DNA of 4,951 nucleotides from a virus. Its lineage: Duplodnaviria > Heunggongvirae > Uroviricota > Caudoviricetes. This document shows positions 1-4,914 of the stretch, in pieces. The stretch is from IMG/VR virus record IMGVR_UViG_2695420650_000004, one strand, 5' to 3'. Both the position numbers and the translations under genes were made by a program. The notes below the pieces were generated by a model. It searched no databases. It was given only the letters and a program-made list of their open reading frames with translations, and was not told the origin of the DNA. The first letter of the stretch is position 1, and each line of letters opens with the position of its first letter.

Positions 1-119
1 ATTAGCTCCTTCTGATGCCATTCTATTTCAGGAAGGAGTGTCCGTTAAACTCAGGCTACCTCAGGTTATTCGCTTCTGGGCATGGGCGGATCAACAAATG
101 ATAGACGGTAATGCAGATT

Positions 120-138
120 GTAACGCTCGCGGCGTTAC
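120..138. promoter_or_regulatory. 19-bp dyad-symmetric site GTAACGC-N5-GCGTTAC (site A), candidate iteron or operator
   Basis: Read directly: GTAACGCTCGCGGCGTTAC, with 7-bp arms that are exact reverse complements. The same arms recur at 329-347. Confidence 0.4.
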
Positions 139-328
139 AAAAAGTGCAATAGATCGCATCACTTTTATGTCTGGTTTTGCTGATGCGTTAATTCAGGTTG
201 GATGGCTGGTCGAAAATGACGGAGGGCTTTCTCTACCTAACTTTGAACGTCATAACGGAAAAAGCTCTAAAAAAAACGGGCGGTTACAAACGAGCGAGTA
301 ACAAAAATACGCGAACTGAAACGAAAAG

Positions 329-347
329 GTAACGCTGCCAGCGTTAC
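329..347. promoter_or_regulatory. 19-bp perfect palindrome GTAACGCTG-C-CAGCGTTAC (site B), candidate iteron or operator
   Basis: Read directly: 9-bp arms that are exact reverse complements. It shares the GTAACGC/GCGTTAC arms with site A, with a further half-site GCGTTAC at 364-370 and a near half-site GCGGTTAC at 280-287. Confidence 0.4.
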
Positions 348-373
348 ACAAACGGATCAAAAAGCGTTACCAG

Positions 374-393
374 AGGAAGAGGAAGAGGAAGAT
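374..393. repeat. Tandem hexamer microsatellite (GAGGAA)x3.3
   Basis: GAGGAAGAGGAAGAGGAAGA read directly; it encodes the EEEEEE(D) acidic linker in frame 1. Confidence 0.7.
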
Positions 394-746
394 CTAAATA
401 CTGATCTCCCCCTCGCCAAAAACGAGCGTCTAAAAAATTCGAGCCGGAGGCTATTGAGCTGCCCGATTGGTTGCCGGAAACACTCTGGCATGAGTGGGTC
501 CGGTTCAGACAGGCATTGCGAAAACCGATTCGAACGGAGCAGGGCGCTAACGGGGCGATACGGGAACTGGAAAAATTCCGTCAGCAGGGTTTTACACCTG
601 AGCAGGTGATTCGACACAGCATCGCCAATGAATACCAGGGCCTGTTCGCGCCGAAAGGTGTTCGGCCTGAGACGTTGCTCCGACAGGTTAACACCGTCTC
701 GTTGCCGGACAGTGCGATCCCGCCAGGCTTCAGGGGGTAACGGACC

Positions 747-1930: not shown

Positions 1931-2344
1931 ATGAAATTAGCTATCAGGCTTCAATTACCGCTGGCATTCGCATCAAAGGAGAGGAGCATGGAAATAAAAC
2001 CAGAAGATGAGTTAAGCAATATTGTTTTATTTCCGGTAAAAGAGGATAACCCTCGTAATCAGGTTAATTTTCTTTATGAGCCATCGGAAAGACCATATTG
2101 CCATCACGCCTCTGTACGGGTTGACGAAAAAGAGCGTCAGGTCCGCTGTAAAATCTGCGGTGCGGTTGTGGAGCCGTTTGACTGGATGCTCTCTGTGGCA
2201 AAAAGAGAAACCAGACTGGCAGATGATGTAAGGCTATTGCGCCAGGAGGAACAGGAAAGGCGGAGAAATATAGAAAAGCTGATACAGATTGAGCGTAACG
2301 CGAAAGCGCGGATACGCAGGGCGACAAAATCCAGAACTGAATAA
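1931..2344 (+). CDS. Hypothetical protein with a putative zinc-ribbon-like Cys/His cluster and a charged C-terminal helix
   Basis: ATG 1931 directly follows the upstream TGA (TGAATG), with AGGAGG at 1914-1919. An alternative in-frame start at ATG 1988 has a better-spaced AAGGAG at 1976-1981 and would give 118 aa. The motif is CHH-x16-C-x2-C, followed by an Arg/Glu-rich coiled-coil-like tail. Confidence 0.7.
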   Translation: MKLAIRLQLPLAFASKERSMEIKPEDELSNIVLFPVKEDNPRNQVNFLYEPSERPYCHHASVRVDEKERQVRCKICGAVVEPFDWMLSVAKRETRLADDVRLLRQEEQERRRNIEKLIQIERNAKARIRRATKSRTE

Positions 2345-2379
2345 TTAAATTTAGCACTGTTAAAAATTTAATCCTTAAC

Positions 2380-2430
2380 CGGAGGGATTTCTGCACCCTC
2401 AAATCATCAGGAGACCACCCGAAAGGGCGG
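2380..2430 (+). repeat. Copy 1 of a 51-bp direct repeat forming two hairpins (second stem carries one mismatch)
   Basis: CGGAGGGATTTCTGCACCCTCAAATCATCAGGAGACCACCCGAAAGGGCGG. Hairpin 1 is GAGGG/CCCTC with a 9-nt loop; hairpin 2 is CCACCC-GAAA-GGGCGG with an A/C mismatch. It matches 2536-2586 at 50 of 51 positions. Confidence 0.85.
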
Positions 2431-2513
2431 GGAGCAGTCACACATCTGTTTCCGATAGCCCCGTTCTAATGCTACACTCTTTGATATTTTTATGACCCCA
2501 ATAAACATATTTA

Positions 2514-2535
2514 NNNNNNNNNNNNNNNNNNNNNN
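2514..2535. other. Assembly gap or masked bases (22 N)
   Basis: A run of 22 N characters read directly; it abuts the 5' edge of repeat copy 2. Confidence 1.
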
Positions 2536-2586
2536 CGGAGGGATTTCTGCACCCTCAAATCATCAGGAGACCGCCCGAAAGGGCGG
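2536..2586 (+). repeat. Copy 2 of the 51-bp direct repeat; hairpin 2 is perfect with a GNRA (GAAA) tetraloop
   Basis: CGGAGGGATTTCTGCACCCTCAAATCATCAGGAGACCGCCCGAAAGGGCGG. Stem 2 is A-CCGCCC-GAAA-GGGCGG-T (7 bp). The repeat ends 6 nt before ATG 2593. The upstream extent is hidden by the N run. Confidence 0.85.
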
Positions 2587-2592
2587 TAATGA

Positions 2593-2811
2593 ATGGTTAC
2601 ATTATTTAGAAAAAAATATCCGCGAAAGAGTAGAACAACAGAATTCCTGTTTCTCATTCTGTTTATCGTGTTGATGACACCGATATCCCCGCTAATTTTT
2701 GTCTGGATAATCGGAAAAATAATTGAGCCAGTTATTGAATTGTATAACGACGTGGTATGGGCGTCATTCAACACACTGCACAATAAAATTAATCCGTATA
2801 AGGAAAGCTGA
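2593..2811 (+). CDS. Putative small membrane protein (72 aa, one predicted transmembrane segment) in an AT-rich segment
   Basis: The ORF has a hydrophobic stretch FLFLILFIVLMTPISPLIFVWIIG. Its TGA at 2809-2811 lies 1 nt before the HNH ATG at 2813. Codon usage is AT-rich with rare AGA and ATA codons, and the ribosome-binding site is weak, so this is a low-confidence call. Confidence 0.35.
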   Translation: MVTLFRKKYPRKSRTTEFLFLILFIVLMTPISPLIFVWIIGKIIEPVIELYNDVVWASFNTLHNKINPYKES

Positions 2812-2812
2812 T

Positions 2813-3178
2813 ATGGCACTGACGAAAAAACAACGTGCAGAACTGCGCATGAAGTTCGGTGGTCGCTGCGCTTATTGCGGCTGCGAACTTGGCGAAAAGT
2901 GGCATGCAGACCATGTAAAACCGGTCATTCGTTTTGATGGAAATATGCTTCACCAGGAACGTGACGATATATCCAACATGGTACCAGCATGCCACCCATG
3001 CAATCTGCACAAGCATTGCAGTAGCCTGGAAGATTATCGACGAATTATCAGTGATGGTCGTCGTGAATTCCTTGCGTCCGGGAAAGGCAAAGCGCTGGTT
3101 CGTATGGGATTGGTTGAAATGAAATCTGACCCGGTTGTGTTCTGGTTTGAAAAATATCAAGAAGGGGCTACGGCATGA
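2813..3178 (+). CDS. HNH endonuclease (small, about 121 aa)
   Basis: Zinc-knuckle and catalytic motifs: CAYCGC ... HADH ... N ... CHPCNLHK. Ribosome-binding site AAGGA at 2800-2804 sits 8 nt before ATG 2813. The longer ORF from 2723 lacks a ribosome-binding site and adds a non-domain N-terminus. Confidence 0.85.
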   Translation: MALTKKQRAELRMKFGGRCAYCGCELGEKWHADHVKPVIRFDGNMLHQERDDISNMVPACHPCNLHKHCSSLEDYRRIISDGRREFLASGKGKALVRMGLVEMKSDPVVFWFEKYQEGATA

Positions 3179-3840
3179 CCACTATTACCAAAGAGCGACT
3201 GCAATGGCTGGCTAACATTTCTGGCCGCGATGATATTGACGATATAGACGGCGGTGAAATTCGTGAACTGGCGCTTATCGCTCTGGCATCACTGGAAGCA
3301 GAGCCTGTAGCGGAATGCATTGTTGAAGATGGGGGCATGTGTATTGACGGGTTCGGTGAGTATGTGGGTCACTCGCTGCCTGATGGAATGCATGAGCTTT
3401 ATGCTGCCCCGCGAATGCGACAACCTGATGGATGGAAAGCCGTAGCTGTAGCGTGGAAGGTGACGTTTACTCAAGTTGACCAGGAATCTAATACGTTCAC
3501 TGCTATATATTTTGACAAAGCGGAAGTTGAGTGTTGGGTACGACTGCATAAAGCATGTGATTTTCGGGCAGATATAACACCGCTTTACGCAGCGCCGGCA
3601 GTGCCGGTTGCAGTAAACGACGACATGGCTTACGCATTCCATCACGCACTGTCAGATTCATCGCTTGGCTCTGATGAAATCGAAGAAATTAAAACCGGTT
3701 TGCGTGCTGCCTTTGCCAACGTCACTATCCAACCAGAGCCGATAGTGCCGGATGAAATCGGGCCAAACGATAGTAATACGTTTGATTATGTTGATGGCTG
3801 GAACGCCTGCCGCGCTGCCATGCTTAAGGGAGATAAATAA
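3175..3840 (+). CDS. Hypothetical prophage protein (221 aa, acidic) with an internal repeated LYAAP motif
   Basis: ATG 3175 overlaps the HNH stop (ATGA), with GAAGGGG at 3161-3167. The LYAAP motif occurs twice (HELYAAPRMRQPDGW and ITPLYAAPAVPVAV). Function is not recognised. Confidence 0.8.
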   Translation: MTTITKERLQWLANISGRDDIDDIDGGEIRELALIALASLEAEPVAECIVEDGGMCIDGFGEYVGHSLPDGMHELYAAPRMRQPDGWKAVAVAWKVTFTQVDQESNTFTAIYFDKAEVECWVRLHKACDFRADITPLYAAPAVPVAVNDDMAYAFHHALSDSSLGSDEIEEIKTGLRAAFANVTIQPEPIVPDEIGPNDSNTFDYVDGWNACRAAMLKGDK

Positions 3841-4205
3841 TGATTAATCGAACCAAACTGGAGCACATTCTCGAATATGCCAGGCAGCAGAAATGTATTG
3901 GGCAACTTTGTAAAATTCCACCAGGAGATATGGTTGAAATCGTGGAAATGGCCATGCGTAAGGCTGGCAACTCTCCGGTAGCTCCGGCTGGCTGGATAAG
4001 CTGTAGTGATGCAGTTCCTGCTGAATATTGCGATGTGATTCTTCTCGATGATCTCGGGAATGTATTCCCCGGTTCCTGGGATAAGGTTTTTTGCCCCACT
4101 CGTGGCGGGAATAAGATGGCTTTTGTGGACAAAGACGGCGTTGAAGTAGAGAGCTCAACTCACTGGATGCCGCTACCGGAACCACCGCAGGAGGTGAATC
4201 AATGA
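3840..4205 (+). CDS. DUF551-like phage protein
   Basis: Start overlaps the upstream stop (TAATG), with ribosome-binding site AAGGGA at 3826-3831. The C-terminus THWMPLPEPP is the hallmark I associate with the DUF551 family common in lambdoid nin regions. Confidence 0.8.
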   Translation: MINRTKLEHILEYARQQKCIGQLCKIPPGDMVEIVEMAMRKAGNSPVAPAGWISCSDAVPAEYCDVILLDDLGNVFPGSWDKVFCPTRGGNKMAFVDKDGVEVESSTHWMPLPEPPQEVNQ

Positions 4206-4285
4206 CCTGGCCTGAGGCATTCACCACGGTAGGAATTGCGATGGCGGTGGCGCTGGTGGTGTATTCGATTTGCCGTTGGGGTTAA
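4202..4285 (+). CDS. Small hydrophobic peptide (27 aa, MTWPEAFTTVGIAMAVALVVYSICRWG), putative single-pass membrane peptide
   Basis: Not in the ORF track because it is too short. A consensus ribosome-binding site AGGAGG at 4189-4194 sits 7 nt before ATG 4202, which overlaps the DUF551 stop (ATGA). It is followed 10 nt later by a strong intrinsic terminator. Confidence 0.5.
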   Translation: MTWPEAFTTVGIAMAVALVVYSICRWG

Positions 4286-4294
4286 CAAACAAAA

Positions 4295-4321
4295 ACCCCG
4301 GATTGATGGTCCGGGGTTTTT
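4295..4321 (+). terminator. Rho-independent terminator closing the HNH/DUF551 operon
   Basis: An 8-bp GC-rich stem ACCCCGGA/TCCGGGGT (4295-4302 and 4310-4317) with a 7-nt loop, followed by TTTT at 4318-4321. An A-run upstream means it could work in both directions. Confidence 0.8.
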
Positions 4322-4455
4322 GAAGGAAACAAAACAGAAACAGCAATTGCCGTTACCTGTTGTTACCATGGCAAGTAAACGTATCTCAGGCGAGCGCATT
4401 GCGCCGTTCTGACGCAGATAAACTAGCCTGGATAGATGGTGCTGGCAATAAAAAA

Positions 4456-4491
4456 TAGCGTTTTCTTATCGGTGTCGGTAAGATTGCTGCG
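4456..4491 (+). promoter_or_regulatory. Putative weak promoter of the hok/mok mRNA
   Basis: -10-like TAAGAT at 4479-4484 with a poor -35. The predicted start near 4491 would give a 5' end GGGUGCUUGAGG, resembling the plasmid R1 hok mRNA 5' end (GGCGCUUGAGG) as I recall it. Confidence 0.4.
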
Positions 4492-4540
4492 GGTGCTTGA
4501 GGCTGTCTGCCTCGGGTATGTCACTGTAAGGCAGACAGAG

Positions 4541-4611
4541 AAAAGCCCCAGTTAACATTACGCGTCCTGCAAGACGCTTAACATTAATCTGAGGCCCAAT
4601 CTATGTCTCAC
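4541..4611 (-). ncRNA. sok: Sok-like antisense RNA (type I antitoxin), predicted
   Basis: A minus-strand promoter is readable as -35 TTGCCT (complement of 4641-4646), a 17-bp spacer, and -10 TAACCT (complement of 4618-4623), which parallels my recollection of the R1 sok promoter. The transcript would be antisense to the mok ribosome-binding site and start codon. A predicted terminator is a 7-bp stem (complement of 4589-4595 paired with 4545-4551, one G-U pair) followed by UUUU. Confidence 0.5.
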
Positions 4612-4815
4612 AAATGTAGGTTAGCCTCTTACGTGCCGAAAGGCAAGGAGAAGCAGGCTATGAAGCAGCAAAAGGCGATGTTAATCGCCCTGATCGTCAT
4701 CTGTTTAACCGTCATTGTGACGGCACTGGTAACGAGGAAAGACCTCTGCGAGGTACGAATCCGAATCGGCCAGACGGAGGTCGCTGTTTTCGTAGACTAC
4801 GAATCTAGAGAGTAA
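4603..4815 (+). CDS. mok: Mok-like reading frame (in-frame N-terminal extension of hok that couples hok translation)
   Basis: ATG 4603 with GAGG at 4591-4594. The 70-aa ORF MSHKCRLASYVPKGKEKQA-MKQQ... has the same architecture as chromosomal MokC/HokC as I recall it. Confidence 0.6.
   Translation: MSHKCRLASYVPKGKEKQAMKQQKAMLIALIVICLTVIVTALVTRKDLCEVRIRIGQTEVAVFVDYESRE
4660..4815 (+). CDS. hok: Hok/Gef family type I toxin (51 aa)
   Basis: MKQQKAMLIALIVICLTVIVTALVTRKDLCEVRIRIGQTEVAVFVDYESRE is near-identical in pattern to HokD/RelF and HokC/Gef. Ribosome-binding site AAGGAG at 4645-4650 precedes ATG 4660. Confidence 0.85.
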   Translation: MKQQKAMLIALIVICLTVIVTALVTRKDLCEVRIRIGQTEVAVFVDYESRE

Positions 4816-4876
4816 GAGTGACCAGGCGGGAGAGTAATCTCCCGCCACCTTTGATGTGTCAGGCATCCTCAACGCA

Positions 4877-4914
4877 CCCGCACTTAACCCGTTTCGGCGG
4901 TTTTTTTGGTAATG
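4877..4914 (+). terminator. Probable 3' end and terminator of the hok mRNA (weak hairpin plus U7)
   Basis: CCGC...GCGG and CCG-TTT-CGG pairings followed by TTTTTTT at 4901-4907. It lies just downstream of the 3' fold-back element GCACCCGC at 4874-4881. Confidence 0.45.

Follow-up and report, generated by a model that had tools for sequence, protein, structure and literature searches.

A DUF4014-family gene for a small membrane protein in a Rac-like prophage segment, preceded by a putative split ribosome-binding site

Phages encode small single-pass inner-membrane proteins, such as HK97 gp15 and T4 Imm, which act in superinfection exclusion or block DNA entry. In lambdoid phages, the mosaicism literature has established the concept of 'linker' sequences that lie at mosaic boundaries. 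The DUF4014 family of 72-aa proteins (phrog_1832) has 127 phage records, including 933W L0067, epsilon15 gp46, ES18 gp39, and HK225_057, and its carriers comprise Stx phages (933W), epsilon15, P22-like phages, HK225, and D6. Recent work has described other short phage proteins of 40–90 aa with effects on the cell surface and on phage sensitivity; they include Gnarl1-3 and the iap inhibitors of O-antigen polymerase, which are non-enzymatic and are thought to act on envelope biosynthesis (PMC12373910). The role of an inhibitor proposed for epsilon15 was 'not investigated to date' (PMC9558356). At the level of translation, genes 38 and 25 of phage T4 possess split ribosome-binding sites, in which a hairpin stands between the Shine-Dalgarno sequence and the AUG; in gene 38, this hairpin shortens the spacing from 22 to 5 nt (PMC3014915).

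The features of the window, that is, the whole stretch of 4,951 nt that was analysed, are collected in Table 1. A sequence-only reading had described positions 2593–2811 as an AT-rich island encoding a possible 72-aa membrane protein just upstream of an HNH gene. The island was readily observed: its G+C content was 0.356 (35.6%), compared with 0.490 (49%) across the window, and just 0.36% of the N-free 219-nt windows were equally low (minimum 0.347, start at 2587). The open reading frame of 72 codons ran from an ATG at 2593 to a TGA at 2809–2811. An open frame of this length had a probability of ~0.004 per frame at this composition, and, when 2536–2830 was shuffled 5000 times, 246 of the shuffles produced one on the + strand. 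The ORF by itself was thus no more than suggestive, and homology was the deciding evidence. The G+C deficit was confined to codon positions 1 (0.34) and 2 (0.30). The GC3 of the ORF (0.425) equalled that of the neighbouring genes (0.43–0.46), which indicated that the AT-richness was due to amino-acid composition. It is a by-product of a greasy protein rich in F, I, L, K, and N, and there is no compositional anomaly.

Table 1. Features of the window and of the DUF4014 locus, with the evidence for each.
Feature	Position	Strand	Evidence or remark
Repeat of the 51-nt element, with a single mismatch (in stem)	2380..2430	+	Part of the QueH-type segment, on the left side of the N-run
Run of 22 N	2514..2535	.	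Join between two different prophage segments
51-nt conserved leader/linker element, copy serving DUF4014	2536..2586	+	Direct repeat D1; fold z-score -3.78
Shine-Dalgarno AGGAG, 23 nt 5' of the DUF4014 ATG	2565..2569	+	Sequence reading
7-bp GAAA-tetraloop hairpin (ACCGCCC GAAA GGGCGGT)	2570..2587	+	Between Shine-Dalgarno and ATG
72-aa DUF4014 / phrog_1832 gene	2593..2811, stop included	+	Pfam, phrog, RefSeq, dN/dS
Codons of the hydrophobic membrane segment, residues 18-44 (FLFLILFIVLMTPISPLIFVWIIGKII)	2644..2724	+	Hydropathy, AlphaFold model, Pro30/Pro33
Codons of the conserved C-terminal tail, residues 45-72	2725..2808	+	Invariant residues; probably periplasmic
TATAAC hexamer, judged non-promoter	2743..2748	+	Without terminal T; no -35 element 16-18 nt upstream
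Shine-Dalgarno-like AAGGAAAG for the HNH gene, within the last DUF4014 codons	2800..2807	+	Sequence reading
HNH endonuclease gene, facultative neighbour, co-transcribed with DUF4014	2813..3178	+	Pfam HNH E 2.2e-6; phrog_2118 E 8.8e-57; RefSeq WP_001229296.1
First strong intrinsic terminator downstream, probable operon end	4290..4322	.	13-bp stem

The product was 100% identical to RefSeq WP_000256997.1, a 'DUF4014 family protein' found in VL40 and FDAARGOS_944. It matched the Pfam model DUF4014 (PF13198) with 90 bits (cut-off 23.2; E 1.3e-25), residues 1–71 being aligned on model positions 1–71 of 72, and the profile search assigned it to phrog_1832 over the same positions (1–71 of 72; E 1.5e-44). 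The homologous loci, whose comparison had been proposed as a check, contained an intact 219-nt frame in 89 of 92 cases, and frame-disrupting variation, which had been named as grounds for refutation, was seen solely as rare singletons. The median dN/dS was 0.18 (range given, 0.18–0.28), and the ratio was below 1 in all 1061 pairs. The sense frame remained open in homologs at only 46–51% identity, and the family was under purifying selection with its length fixed at 72 aa. The family match, the intact frames, and the dN/dS all supported the main claim of a membrane protein gene just 5' of the HNH gene, and we consider it very probable that 2593–2811 is a genuine coding gene of a lambdoid (Rac-like) prophage belonging to DUF4014/phrog_1832.

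The DUF4014 gene was present in 1012 of 5426 complete E. coli genomes (about one in five) and in most of the Stx2 phages sampled. Its distribution was narrow, covering the temperate phages of E. coli, Shigella, and Salmonella. A HMMER search of 1.84 billion representatives returned just 19 clusters, mostly fragments or fusions of the DUF4014 family, and no remote relatives were found among them. The scan of GTDB species representatives gave only two loci, in E. coli and Shigella flexneri, and thus added no diversity for covariation analysis. The 72-aa protein had no match in NCBIfam or PADLOC, its best hit in a PDB profile search was noise (E ~0.8), and Foldseek found nothing in BFVD at E <=0.001. 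The fold search was uninformative here because the structure is a single kinked helix.

The sequence-only reading had also considered that the segment was non-coding and served as a promoter or leader of the HNH operon. The AT-richness of the region is in line with this, the hexamer TATAAC does exist at the position given, and the block 2717–2760 was identical in the window and phage ArgO145. For a sigma-70 promoter, the -10 hexamer was expected to have A and T as its second and sixth bases, with a -35 hexamer 16–18 nt upstream. However, TATAAC ends in C, thus lacking the conserved -7 T, and no -35 element was found at that distance. The hexamer falls in codons 51–52 (Tyr51-Asn52), of which Tyr51 is invariant, and the scans detected neither a promoter-like site on the + strand nor a terminator-like site within 2200–3000, which covered the gene and its leader. 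Moreover, the 72-aa frame was conserved down to 46% identity under codon-level purifying selection. The HNH gene was located downstream of DUF4014 at 38 of the 92 loci, upstream at three, and elsewhere in the fetched flank at two, and it was absent from the remaining 49. The promoter or leader claim was therefore not upheld, and we regard it as very improbable.

A second competing possibility was that the real gene lay on the opposite strand, where an ORF of 102 aa (2511–2819) was open across the whole segment in the E. coli-type copies. A promoter-like site with a 9-of-12 match was found on the same strand (2767–2739), but it lay within the ORF, with just the distal portion of the frame downstream of it, and the count of such sites did not exceed that in shuffled sequence. 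The antisense frame was a classic shadow ORF, because its wobble positions were shared with the sense frame. It was interrupted by 2–3 stops in the Salmonella-type homologs (46–51% identity), in which the sense frame was intact, and it extended into the N-run. The neighbouring genes and the database annotations were all on the + strand. It is extremely improbable that the antisense ORF is the real gene.

The encoded protein contained one strongly hydrophobic segment, as had been claimed, with a Kyte-Doolittle mean over 19 residues of up to 2.68. Two prolines within it, P30 (invariant) and P33 (nearly invariant among homologs), pointed to a conserved kink. The AlphaFold model comprised two helices, 14–28 and 32–66, with a mean pLDDT of 81 and values >90 across the hydrophobic segment. 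On the N-terminal side, Y9, P10, R11, and R14 (motif YPRxSR) were invariant in an alignment reaching 47% identity. The C-terminal tail ended in the motif LHNKxNPY(K/R)E, and E45, Y51, F59, H63, N64, K65, N67, P68, and Y69 were invariant in homologs down to ~46–47% identity. No clear 100-degree signal was detected in the periodicity of conservation along the C-terminal helix, and thus no 'conserved face' is claimed for it. The N-terminus carried six K/R and one D/E, and the tail two K/R and four D/E. By the positive-inside rule, the topology would be N-in/C-out. The DUF4014 protein would then be a single-pass inner-membrane protein with a proline-kinked helix, its basic N-terminus (FRKxYPRxSR) being cytoplasmic and its 28-residue LHNKxNPY tail periplasmic. 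Alternatively, the 27-residue hydrophobic stretch with its two prolines could form a re-entrant hairpin.

The flanking genes of DUF4014 in the window were those of a Rac-like prophage: a YdaV-like ATPase, DUF977, HNH, DUF551, and hok/sok. The distance of 1 nt between the DUF4014 stop codon and the HNH start (ATG at 2813) was as previously described, and the same start was used in RefSeq. The Shine-Dalgarno-like AAGGAAAG ahead of it was invariant across the window, VL40, and ArgO145. A functional coupling between DUF4014 and HNH was rejected since the two genes are merely facultative neighbours. In all annotated phages examined, DUF4014 sat inside early operons, namely the 'ea/nin' accessory operons, in which the genes were tightly packed (1–3 nt gaps or 4-nt overlaps) and the neighbours changed. 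The scan listed the downstream terminator on the − strand, and a T-run was present on the + strand as well. A moron structure, with a promoter and a terminator of its own, was not found within 2200–3000, and the next gene was 1 nt away. A role as a holin was also rejected on position, because the gene belongs to an early operon and not to the lysis cassette.

Upstream of the gene, the window was found to join two prophage segments at the N-run. The left part (63–2513) was 99.3% identical to the QueH prophage of FDAARGOS_944, and its last base was the first of the QueH start codon; the right part (2536–4907) was 99.75% identical to the DUF4014-HNH prophage of the same genome. The duplication of the 51-nt element and the fragment of QueH leader at this join may be genuine or may have arisen in scaffolding. 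The 51-nt element at the edge of the right part contained two hairpins, GAGGG...CCCTC and the GAAA hairpin, and Rfam gave no match in 2345–2811. Together with the preceding 36 nt, the element was conserved among prophages with differing flanking cassettes, which carried DUF4014, QueH, two MTELTK ORFs, or a Q-family gene. The similarity between those prophages broke at the hairpin.

The GAAA hairpin had a predicted free energy of -14.1 kcal/mol and a pairing probability of ~1.0, and the AGGAG before it was predicted to be unpaired (P(paired) <=0.09 for GGAG). When folded, the hairpin leaves 5 nt (AATGA) ahead of the ATG. Translation of DUF4014 would thus start from a 'split' site, in which the hairpin cuts the 23-nt Shine-Dalgarno spacing to 5 nt. 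The Shine-Dalgarno sequence, the hairpin, and the ATG were jointly conserved at 58 loci, behind two unrelated upstream sequences, with AGGAG(G) or GGGAGG at all 58. In one of these upstream contexts, the entire 32-nt intergenic spacer consisted of tgtc, the Shine-Dalgarno sequence, the hairpin, and TAATGA. Five stem variants and one loop variant were observed; three were G-U-compatible transitions, one kept a GNRA loop, and two singletons broke a pair, and there were no double compensatory changes. On the other side, the predicted fold in the context of the window also paired the AUG with an upstream CAU, which counts against a split site. The family can do without the hairpin, since about a third of the loci (31 of 92) had a canonical AAAGGAGAGTGAT-GTG site instead. 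One prophage had a gene with its own second Shine-Dalgarno sequence after the hairpin, and in another the hairpin was 83 nt from the next gene; hence, it could be a linker or an mRNA-stability element. By analogy with T4 gene 38, we give even chances to a split ribosome-binding site serving the DUF4014 start.

As for function, the literature search found no paper that mentioned DUF4014 or L0067 and no experimental function for any member. Old annotations name the epsilon15 member, which was 51% identical over 72/72 residues, as an inhibitor of the host O-antigen O-acetyltransferase and thus as a lysogenic-conversion factor. The g341c record cites NP_848254.1 as 'acetyltransferase inhibitor protein epsilon15p46', and the same label is attached to HK225, Salmonella phage P6, ArgO145, and several E. 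coli entries. A small membrane protein would be plausible against an integral-membrane AT3 acyltransferase. However, this proposal 'has not been investigated to date' (PMC9558356), and the name has been dropped by RefSeq. The gene lies in early lytic ea/nin operons rather than in conversion cassettes beside int or the tailspike gene. Because the operon is early lytic and the gene has no promoter of its own, expression in the lysogen is not expected. In addition, family members occurred frequently in P22-like phages and, across many E. coli serotypes, in Stx and Rac-like prophages. The group E1 acetyltransferase is not common to those hosts, which would suggest a more general target. We thus consider the O-acetyltransferase inhibitor distinctly unlikely.

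Superinfection exclusion or a block of DNA entry would fit the size of the protein, its single hydrophobic helix, and its probably periplasmic conserved tail, as well as its restriction to temperate phages and prophages. The recently described short accessory proteins lend some support to this function, although they are non-homologous (PMC12373910). However, no sequence or fold similarity to exclusion proteins was found in the PHROG, PADLOC, PDB, and BFVD searches, the promoter and terminator typical of a moron were lacking, and the operon would presumably be silenced by the prophage repressor in the lysogen. This function is likewise unlikely.

The protein is too small for an enzyme and would most likely bind a host envelope or inner-membrane protein via its invariant tail. 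It would act while the early operon is being transcribed, either in lytic growth or following induction. We put forward such a binder-type mechanism, as a class defined by an envelope or inner-membrane partner and early operon timing, as a tentative possibility. The broader proposal is that DUF4014 proteins are widespread single-pass membrane 'binders' whose periplasmic LHNKxNPY tail inhibits a host envelope enzyme or transporter (e.g., an O-antigen acyltransferase or a phage DNA-entry factor), and that they are expressed from a portable split-site cassette, which doubles as a recombination linker for cassette swaps among Rac-like and Stx prophages. Taken as a whole, this proposal is speculative and rather doubtful.

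These results settled the coding-versus-promoter question and explained the AT-rich 'island' by protein composition. The gene itself is already catalogued, with a Pfam/PHROG family name and routine annotation, and the finding therefore carries little weight as a discovery. The label 'O-polysaccharide acetyltransferase inhibitor' rests on no accessible experiment, and the same is true of the phrog_1832 label 'released from the phage upon host infection', for which none could be traced in the literature search. DUF4014 would be worth including when small phage membrane proteins are screened for function, because it occurs in about one-fifth of complete E. coli genomes and in most sampled Stx2 phages.

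Compared with the known DUF4014 members (933W L0067, epsilon15 gp46, ES18 gp39, and HK225_057), the protein analysed here shared the 72-aa size, the full-length match to the family model, and the YPRxSR and LHNKxNPY motifs, and its gene had the same setting in early accessory 'ea/nin' operons of temperate enterobacterial phages. No material difference was found except for the neighbours, which vary by phage: the HNH gene is 3' of DUF4014 here, whereas it is 5' or absent in P22-like phages. DUF4014 proteins are similarly short to Gnarl1-3 and the iap inhibitors, but no sequence relationship was found, and the possible analogy serves as a lead only. Like the linkers at the mosaic boundaries of lambdoid phages, the 51-nt element is conserved where the cassettes on either side differ between prophages, and it may be such a linker. 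In T4 genes 38 and 25, as in the DUF4014 leader, the Shine-Dalgarno sequence is too distant from the start codon (23 nt in DUF4014), and a stable hairpin would restore a spacing of 5 nt, inside the expected 5–11 nt. The DUF4014 leader is not homologous to those of T4. The hairpin of the DUF4014 type also differs from them in that it marks mosaic junctions and precedes unrelated genes. This arrangement of Shine-Dalgarno sequence, hairpin, and AUG at a mosaic junction constitutes a tidy and testable candidate for a split site outside the T-even phages.

The AT-rich segment at 2593-2811 (+) was read as a membrane-protein gene, and the match of its product to the DUF4014 family together with a conserved reading frame supported that coding interpretation. 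The 72-aa ORF starts with ATG at 2593 and ends with TGA at 2809-2811, its stop 1 nt short of the HNH start (ATG 2813) as the sequence-only reading had described, and it encodes MVTLFRKKYPRKSRTTEFLFLILFIVLMTPISPLIFVWIIGKIIEPVIELYNDVVWASFNTLHNKINPYKES. The low G+C content was likewise confirmed (35.6% vs. 49.0% window-wide): of all N-free 219-nt segments in the stretch, only 0.36% were this low, and the minimum (34.7%) started at 2587. The GC3 of the ORF (0.425) equaled that of the HNH, DUF551, and neighboring genes (0.43-0.46), and its GC1 (0.34) and GC2 (0.30) were both low. Thus, the "AT-rich island" is a by-product of a protein rich in F, I, L, K, and N and is not a foreign or regulatory insert. 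A 72-codon open frame at this composition has a probability of ~0.004 per frame, and shuffling the surrounding 295 nt produced a comparable frame in 4.9% of trials; the length is therefore only mildly unlikely by chance, and the ORF by itself is no proof of a gene.

The comparison of homologous loci, comprising annotated records and 80 IMG/VR contigs, showed an intact frame (219 nt, start, and single terminal stop) in 89 of 92. The exceptions were a read-through fusion in phage D6 and two copies altered at the 5' end; disrupting variants were rare singletons, including a few database proteins with frameshifted N-termini. In D6, orf103 consists of DUF4014 without its stop, fused to a 79-aa C-terminal extension (151 aa in total). 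The dN/dS values against the window copy were 0.20-0.28, and the median over 1061 pairs was 0.18 with none reaching 1 or more (Nei-Gojobori). The sense frame was still open in homologs of only 46-51% identity. An antisense ORF was open in E. coli-type copies and carried 2-3 stops in these Salmonella-type homologs; it was rejected as a gene and regarded as a shadow ORF.

The Pfam DUF4014 (PF13198) match was full-length (E 1.3e-25, 90 bits; cut-off 23.2), and phrog_1832 matched at E 1.5e-44. The gene DNA was 100% identical to that of WP_000256997.1, the RefSeq "DUF4014 family protein" of E. coli VL40 and FDAARGOS_944. Among 5426 complete E. coli genomes, the ORF taken alone occurred in 1012, with at most six copies each, and all of the matches listed from these genomes were annotated "DUF4014 family protein." By tblastn, 127 phage records carried it, among them most Stx-converting phages (e.g., 933W L0067 and VT2-Sakai), Salmonella phages epsilon15 (gp46), epsilon34, g341c, and ES18 (gp39), coliphage HK225, and the P1-like phage D6. 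The family distribution is narrow: when 1.84 billion cluster representatives were searched exhaustively with HMMER, 19 clusters matched, and only two GTDB species-representative genomes contained it. The gene thus belongs to an already catalogued domain-of-unknown-function (DUF) family, and it is not new. The remaining interest lies in a very common prophage membrane peptide of putative function and in a candidate hairpin-bridged ribosome-binding cassette apparently sited at a mosaic junction.

Residues 18-44 are strongly hydrophobic (Kyte-Doolittle 19-residue mean up to 2.68), which bore out the membrane segment proposed earlier. The first 17 residues include 6 K/R and 1 D/E, and the last 28 include 2 K/R and 4 D/E; by the positive-inside rule the protein would be a signal anchor with a cytoplasmic N-terminus and a periplasmic conserved tail. 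Invariant in both subfamilies were K7, Y9, P10, R11, R14, E17, P30, E45, Y51, F59, H63, N64, K65, N67, P68, and Y69. An AlphaFold2 model built with a 22-sequence alignment showed helices at 14-28 and 32-66 separated by a break at prolines (mean pLDDT 81; >90 at residues 21-50). No match for the protein was found in PADLOC, NCBIfam, PDB sequences, or BFVD folds. A single-helix protein of 72 residues cannot be an enzyme, and the most economical mechanism would be that it binds and modulates a host inner-membrane or periplasmic protein. The label "O-polysaccharide / sugar acetyltransferase inhibitor," a proposed role, stems from how epsilon15 gp46 was first annotated, and the literature search traced no data supporting the PHROG/RefSeq label "Released from the phage upon host infection." In every annotated phage, DUF4014 sits in an early operon (ea or nin), lacks its own promoter, and either overlaps its neighbors by 4 nt or is separated from them by 1-3 nt. 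This placement fits expression in lytic growth more than in the lysogen; combined with the occurrence across many serotypes, it weakens the specific conversion-factor reading.

The alternative was that the segment is a non-coding promoter or leader of the HNH operon. The proposed -10 element, TATAAC, is present at 2743-2748, but its promoter role did not hold: it lacks the final T, the closest TTGAGC is only 14 nt upstream, and a consensus scan of the whole window, 2200-3000 included, gave no promoter-like site on the + strand. A 9-of-12 match on the - strand (2767-2739) occurred at chance frequency. The alternative was rejected on the + strand evidence and chiefly because HNH, which has its own Shine-Dalgarno, is only a facultative neighbor: it was directly downstream of DUF4014 in 38 of the 92 loci (the window and 37 others), directly upstream in three (g341c, HK225, and BIS08P22), elsewhere within the fetched flank in two, and absent from that flank in 49. 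The upstream HNH genes of P22-like phages and HK225 share the VFWFExYQxGA C-terminus of the window HNH. The MTTITK... gene following the DUF4014-HNH pair directly follows DUF4014 in epsilon15 and g341c, which fits HNH being a free-standing mobile gene that can sit on one or the other flank of the coding DUF4014 gene.

Features of the window and of comparison loci (L-numbers, own coordinates)
Feature	Sequence	Position	Strand	Remark
YdaU-like gene	window	38-740		ORFs 38-301 and 471-740
51-nt leader repeats	window	2380-2430 and 2536-2586		
Antisense ORF	window	2511-2819	-	102 codons; spans whole DUF4014 gene; wobble positions in common with sense frame
Shine-Dalgarno AGGAG	window	2565-2569	+	read from sequence
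7-bp hairpin, GAAA tetraloop	window	2570-2587	+	between AGGAG and ATG 2593
HNH Shine-Dalgarno AAGGAAAG	window	2800-2807	+	inside end of DUF4014 ORF
HNH endonuclease gene	window	2813-3178		ATG one base past DUF4014 stop
27-aa ORF MTWPEAFTTVGIAMAVALVVYSICRWG	window	4202-4285	+	ATG overlaps DUF551 stop (ATGA)
Strong terminator	window	4290-4322		directly after 27-aa ORF
hok/sok locus	window	4491-4815		complete type I toxin-antitoxin
sok	window	4491-4665		Rfam 118 bits, E 2e-27
Hok/Gef ORF	window	end at 4815		Pfam HOK_GEF E 1.7e-21
D6 orf103	L009	2495-2950		
Upstream HNH genes	L007, L008, L011	~2085-2504		
AGGAG + GAAA-hairpin leader	L095, L096, L097	1501-1600		before unrelated genes
AGGAG + GAAA-hairpin leader	L004	3536-3669		before unrelated genes

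Compared with VL40 and phage ArgO145, the window had 156 extra bases (~2380-2535), a stretch that holds both a further copy of the 51-nt leader element and the 22-N run (2514-2535). Positions 63-2513, whose last base is the first of the QueH start codon, shared 99.3% identity with a Rac-like prophage of FDAARGOS_944 that carries QueH. Positions 2536-4907 shared 99.75% identity with another FDAARGOS_944 prophage, which has DUF4014, HNH, a hypothetical gene, DUF551, and hok. Such a change of partner could reflect a real recombinant; it points most likely to a scaffold join over the repeat common to two co-resident prophages. A join at the N run leaves the DUF4014 finding unchanged: the upstream 118-aa gene and DUF4014 are separated by the same 36 + 51 nt spacer in complete genomes.

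Other features were also observed in the window. The YdaU-like replication-initiator gene appears split, with an A-run and a GAGGAA repeat (~373-392) between its ORFs, and in VL40 and FDAARGOS_944 the corresponding gene is an incomplete pseudogene according to RefSeq. A complete hok/sok locus was present. The unannotated 27-aa hydrophobic ORF had a weak PHROG match (E 0.019), and a similar peptide was found in locus L044.

The hairpin leader was also found 83 nt from QueH, 9 nt before two different MTELTK... ORFs in other E. coli prophages, and before a Q-family gene with its own GGAG (a second Shine-Dalgarno) after the hairpin. Since the hairpin precedes other genes and similarity between those prophages ends at it, the leader also looks like a mosaic-junction or linker element.

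Two start-site arrangements were found: the canonical AAAGGAGAGTGAT-GTG/ATG in 31 loci and, in 58 including the window, AGGAG(G), the hairpin [A/G]CCGCCC-GAAA-GGGCGGT, TAATGA or TAAGAA, and ATG. The latter unit of Shine-Dalgarno, hairpin, and ATG stood behind two unrelated upstream sequences, and in L044 the whole 32-nt intergenic spacer was TAA-tgtc-AGGAGG-hairpin-TAATGA-ATG. The hairpin alone was predicted at -14.1 kcal/mol with an ensemble pairing probability of ~1, GGAG was predicted unpaired (P paired <=0.09), and the 75-nt leader fold had a z-score of -3.78; in the window context, the AUG was also predicted to pair with an upstream CAU. Hairpin variants were few (three transitions giving G-U pairs, one GGAA loop that is still GNRA, and two singletons breaking a pair), with no double compensatory changes among the homologous loci. 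The hairpin may serve another role, such as mRNA stability, and we hold the chances to be evenly balanced that the DUF4014 start uses a predicted split ribosome-binding site. The distance from AGGAG to ATG is 23 nt and becomes 5 nt with the hairpin formed, a geometry that matches the "split" sites of T4, in which 22 nt is reduced to 5 in gene 38 and 27 to 11 in gene 25 (PMC3014915).
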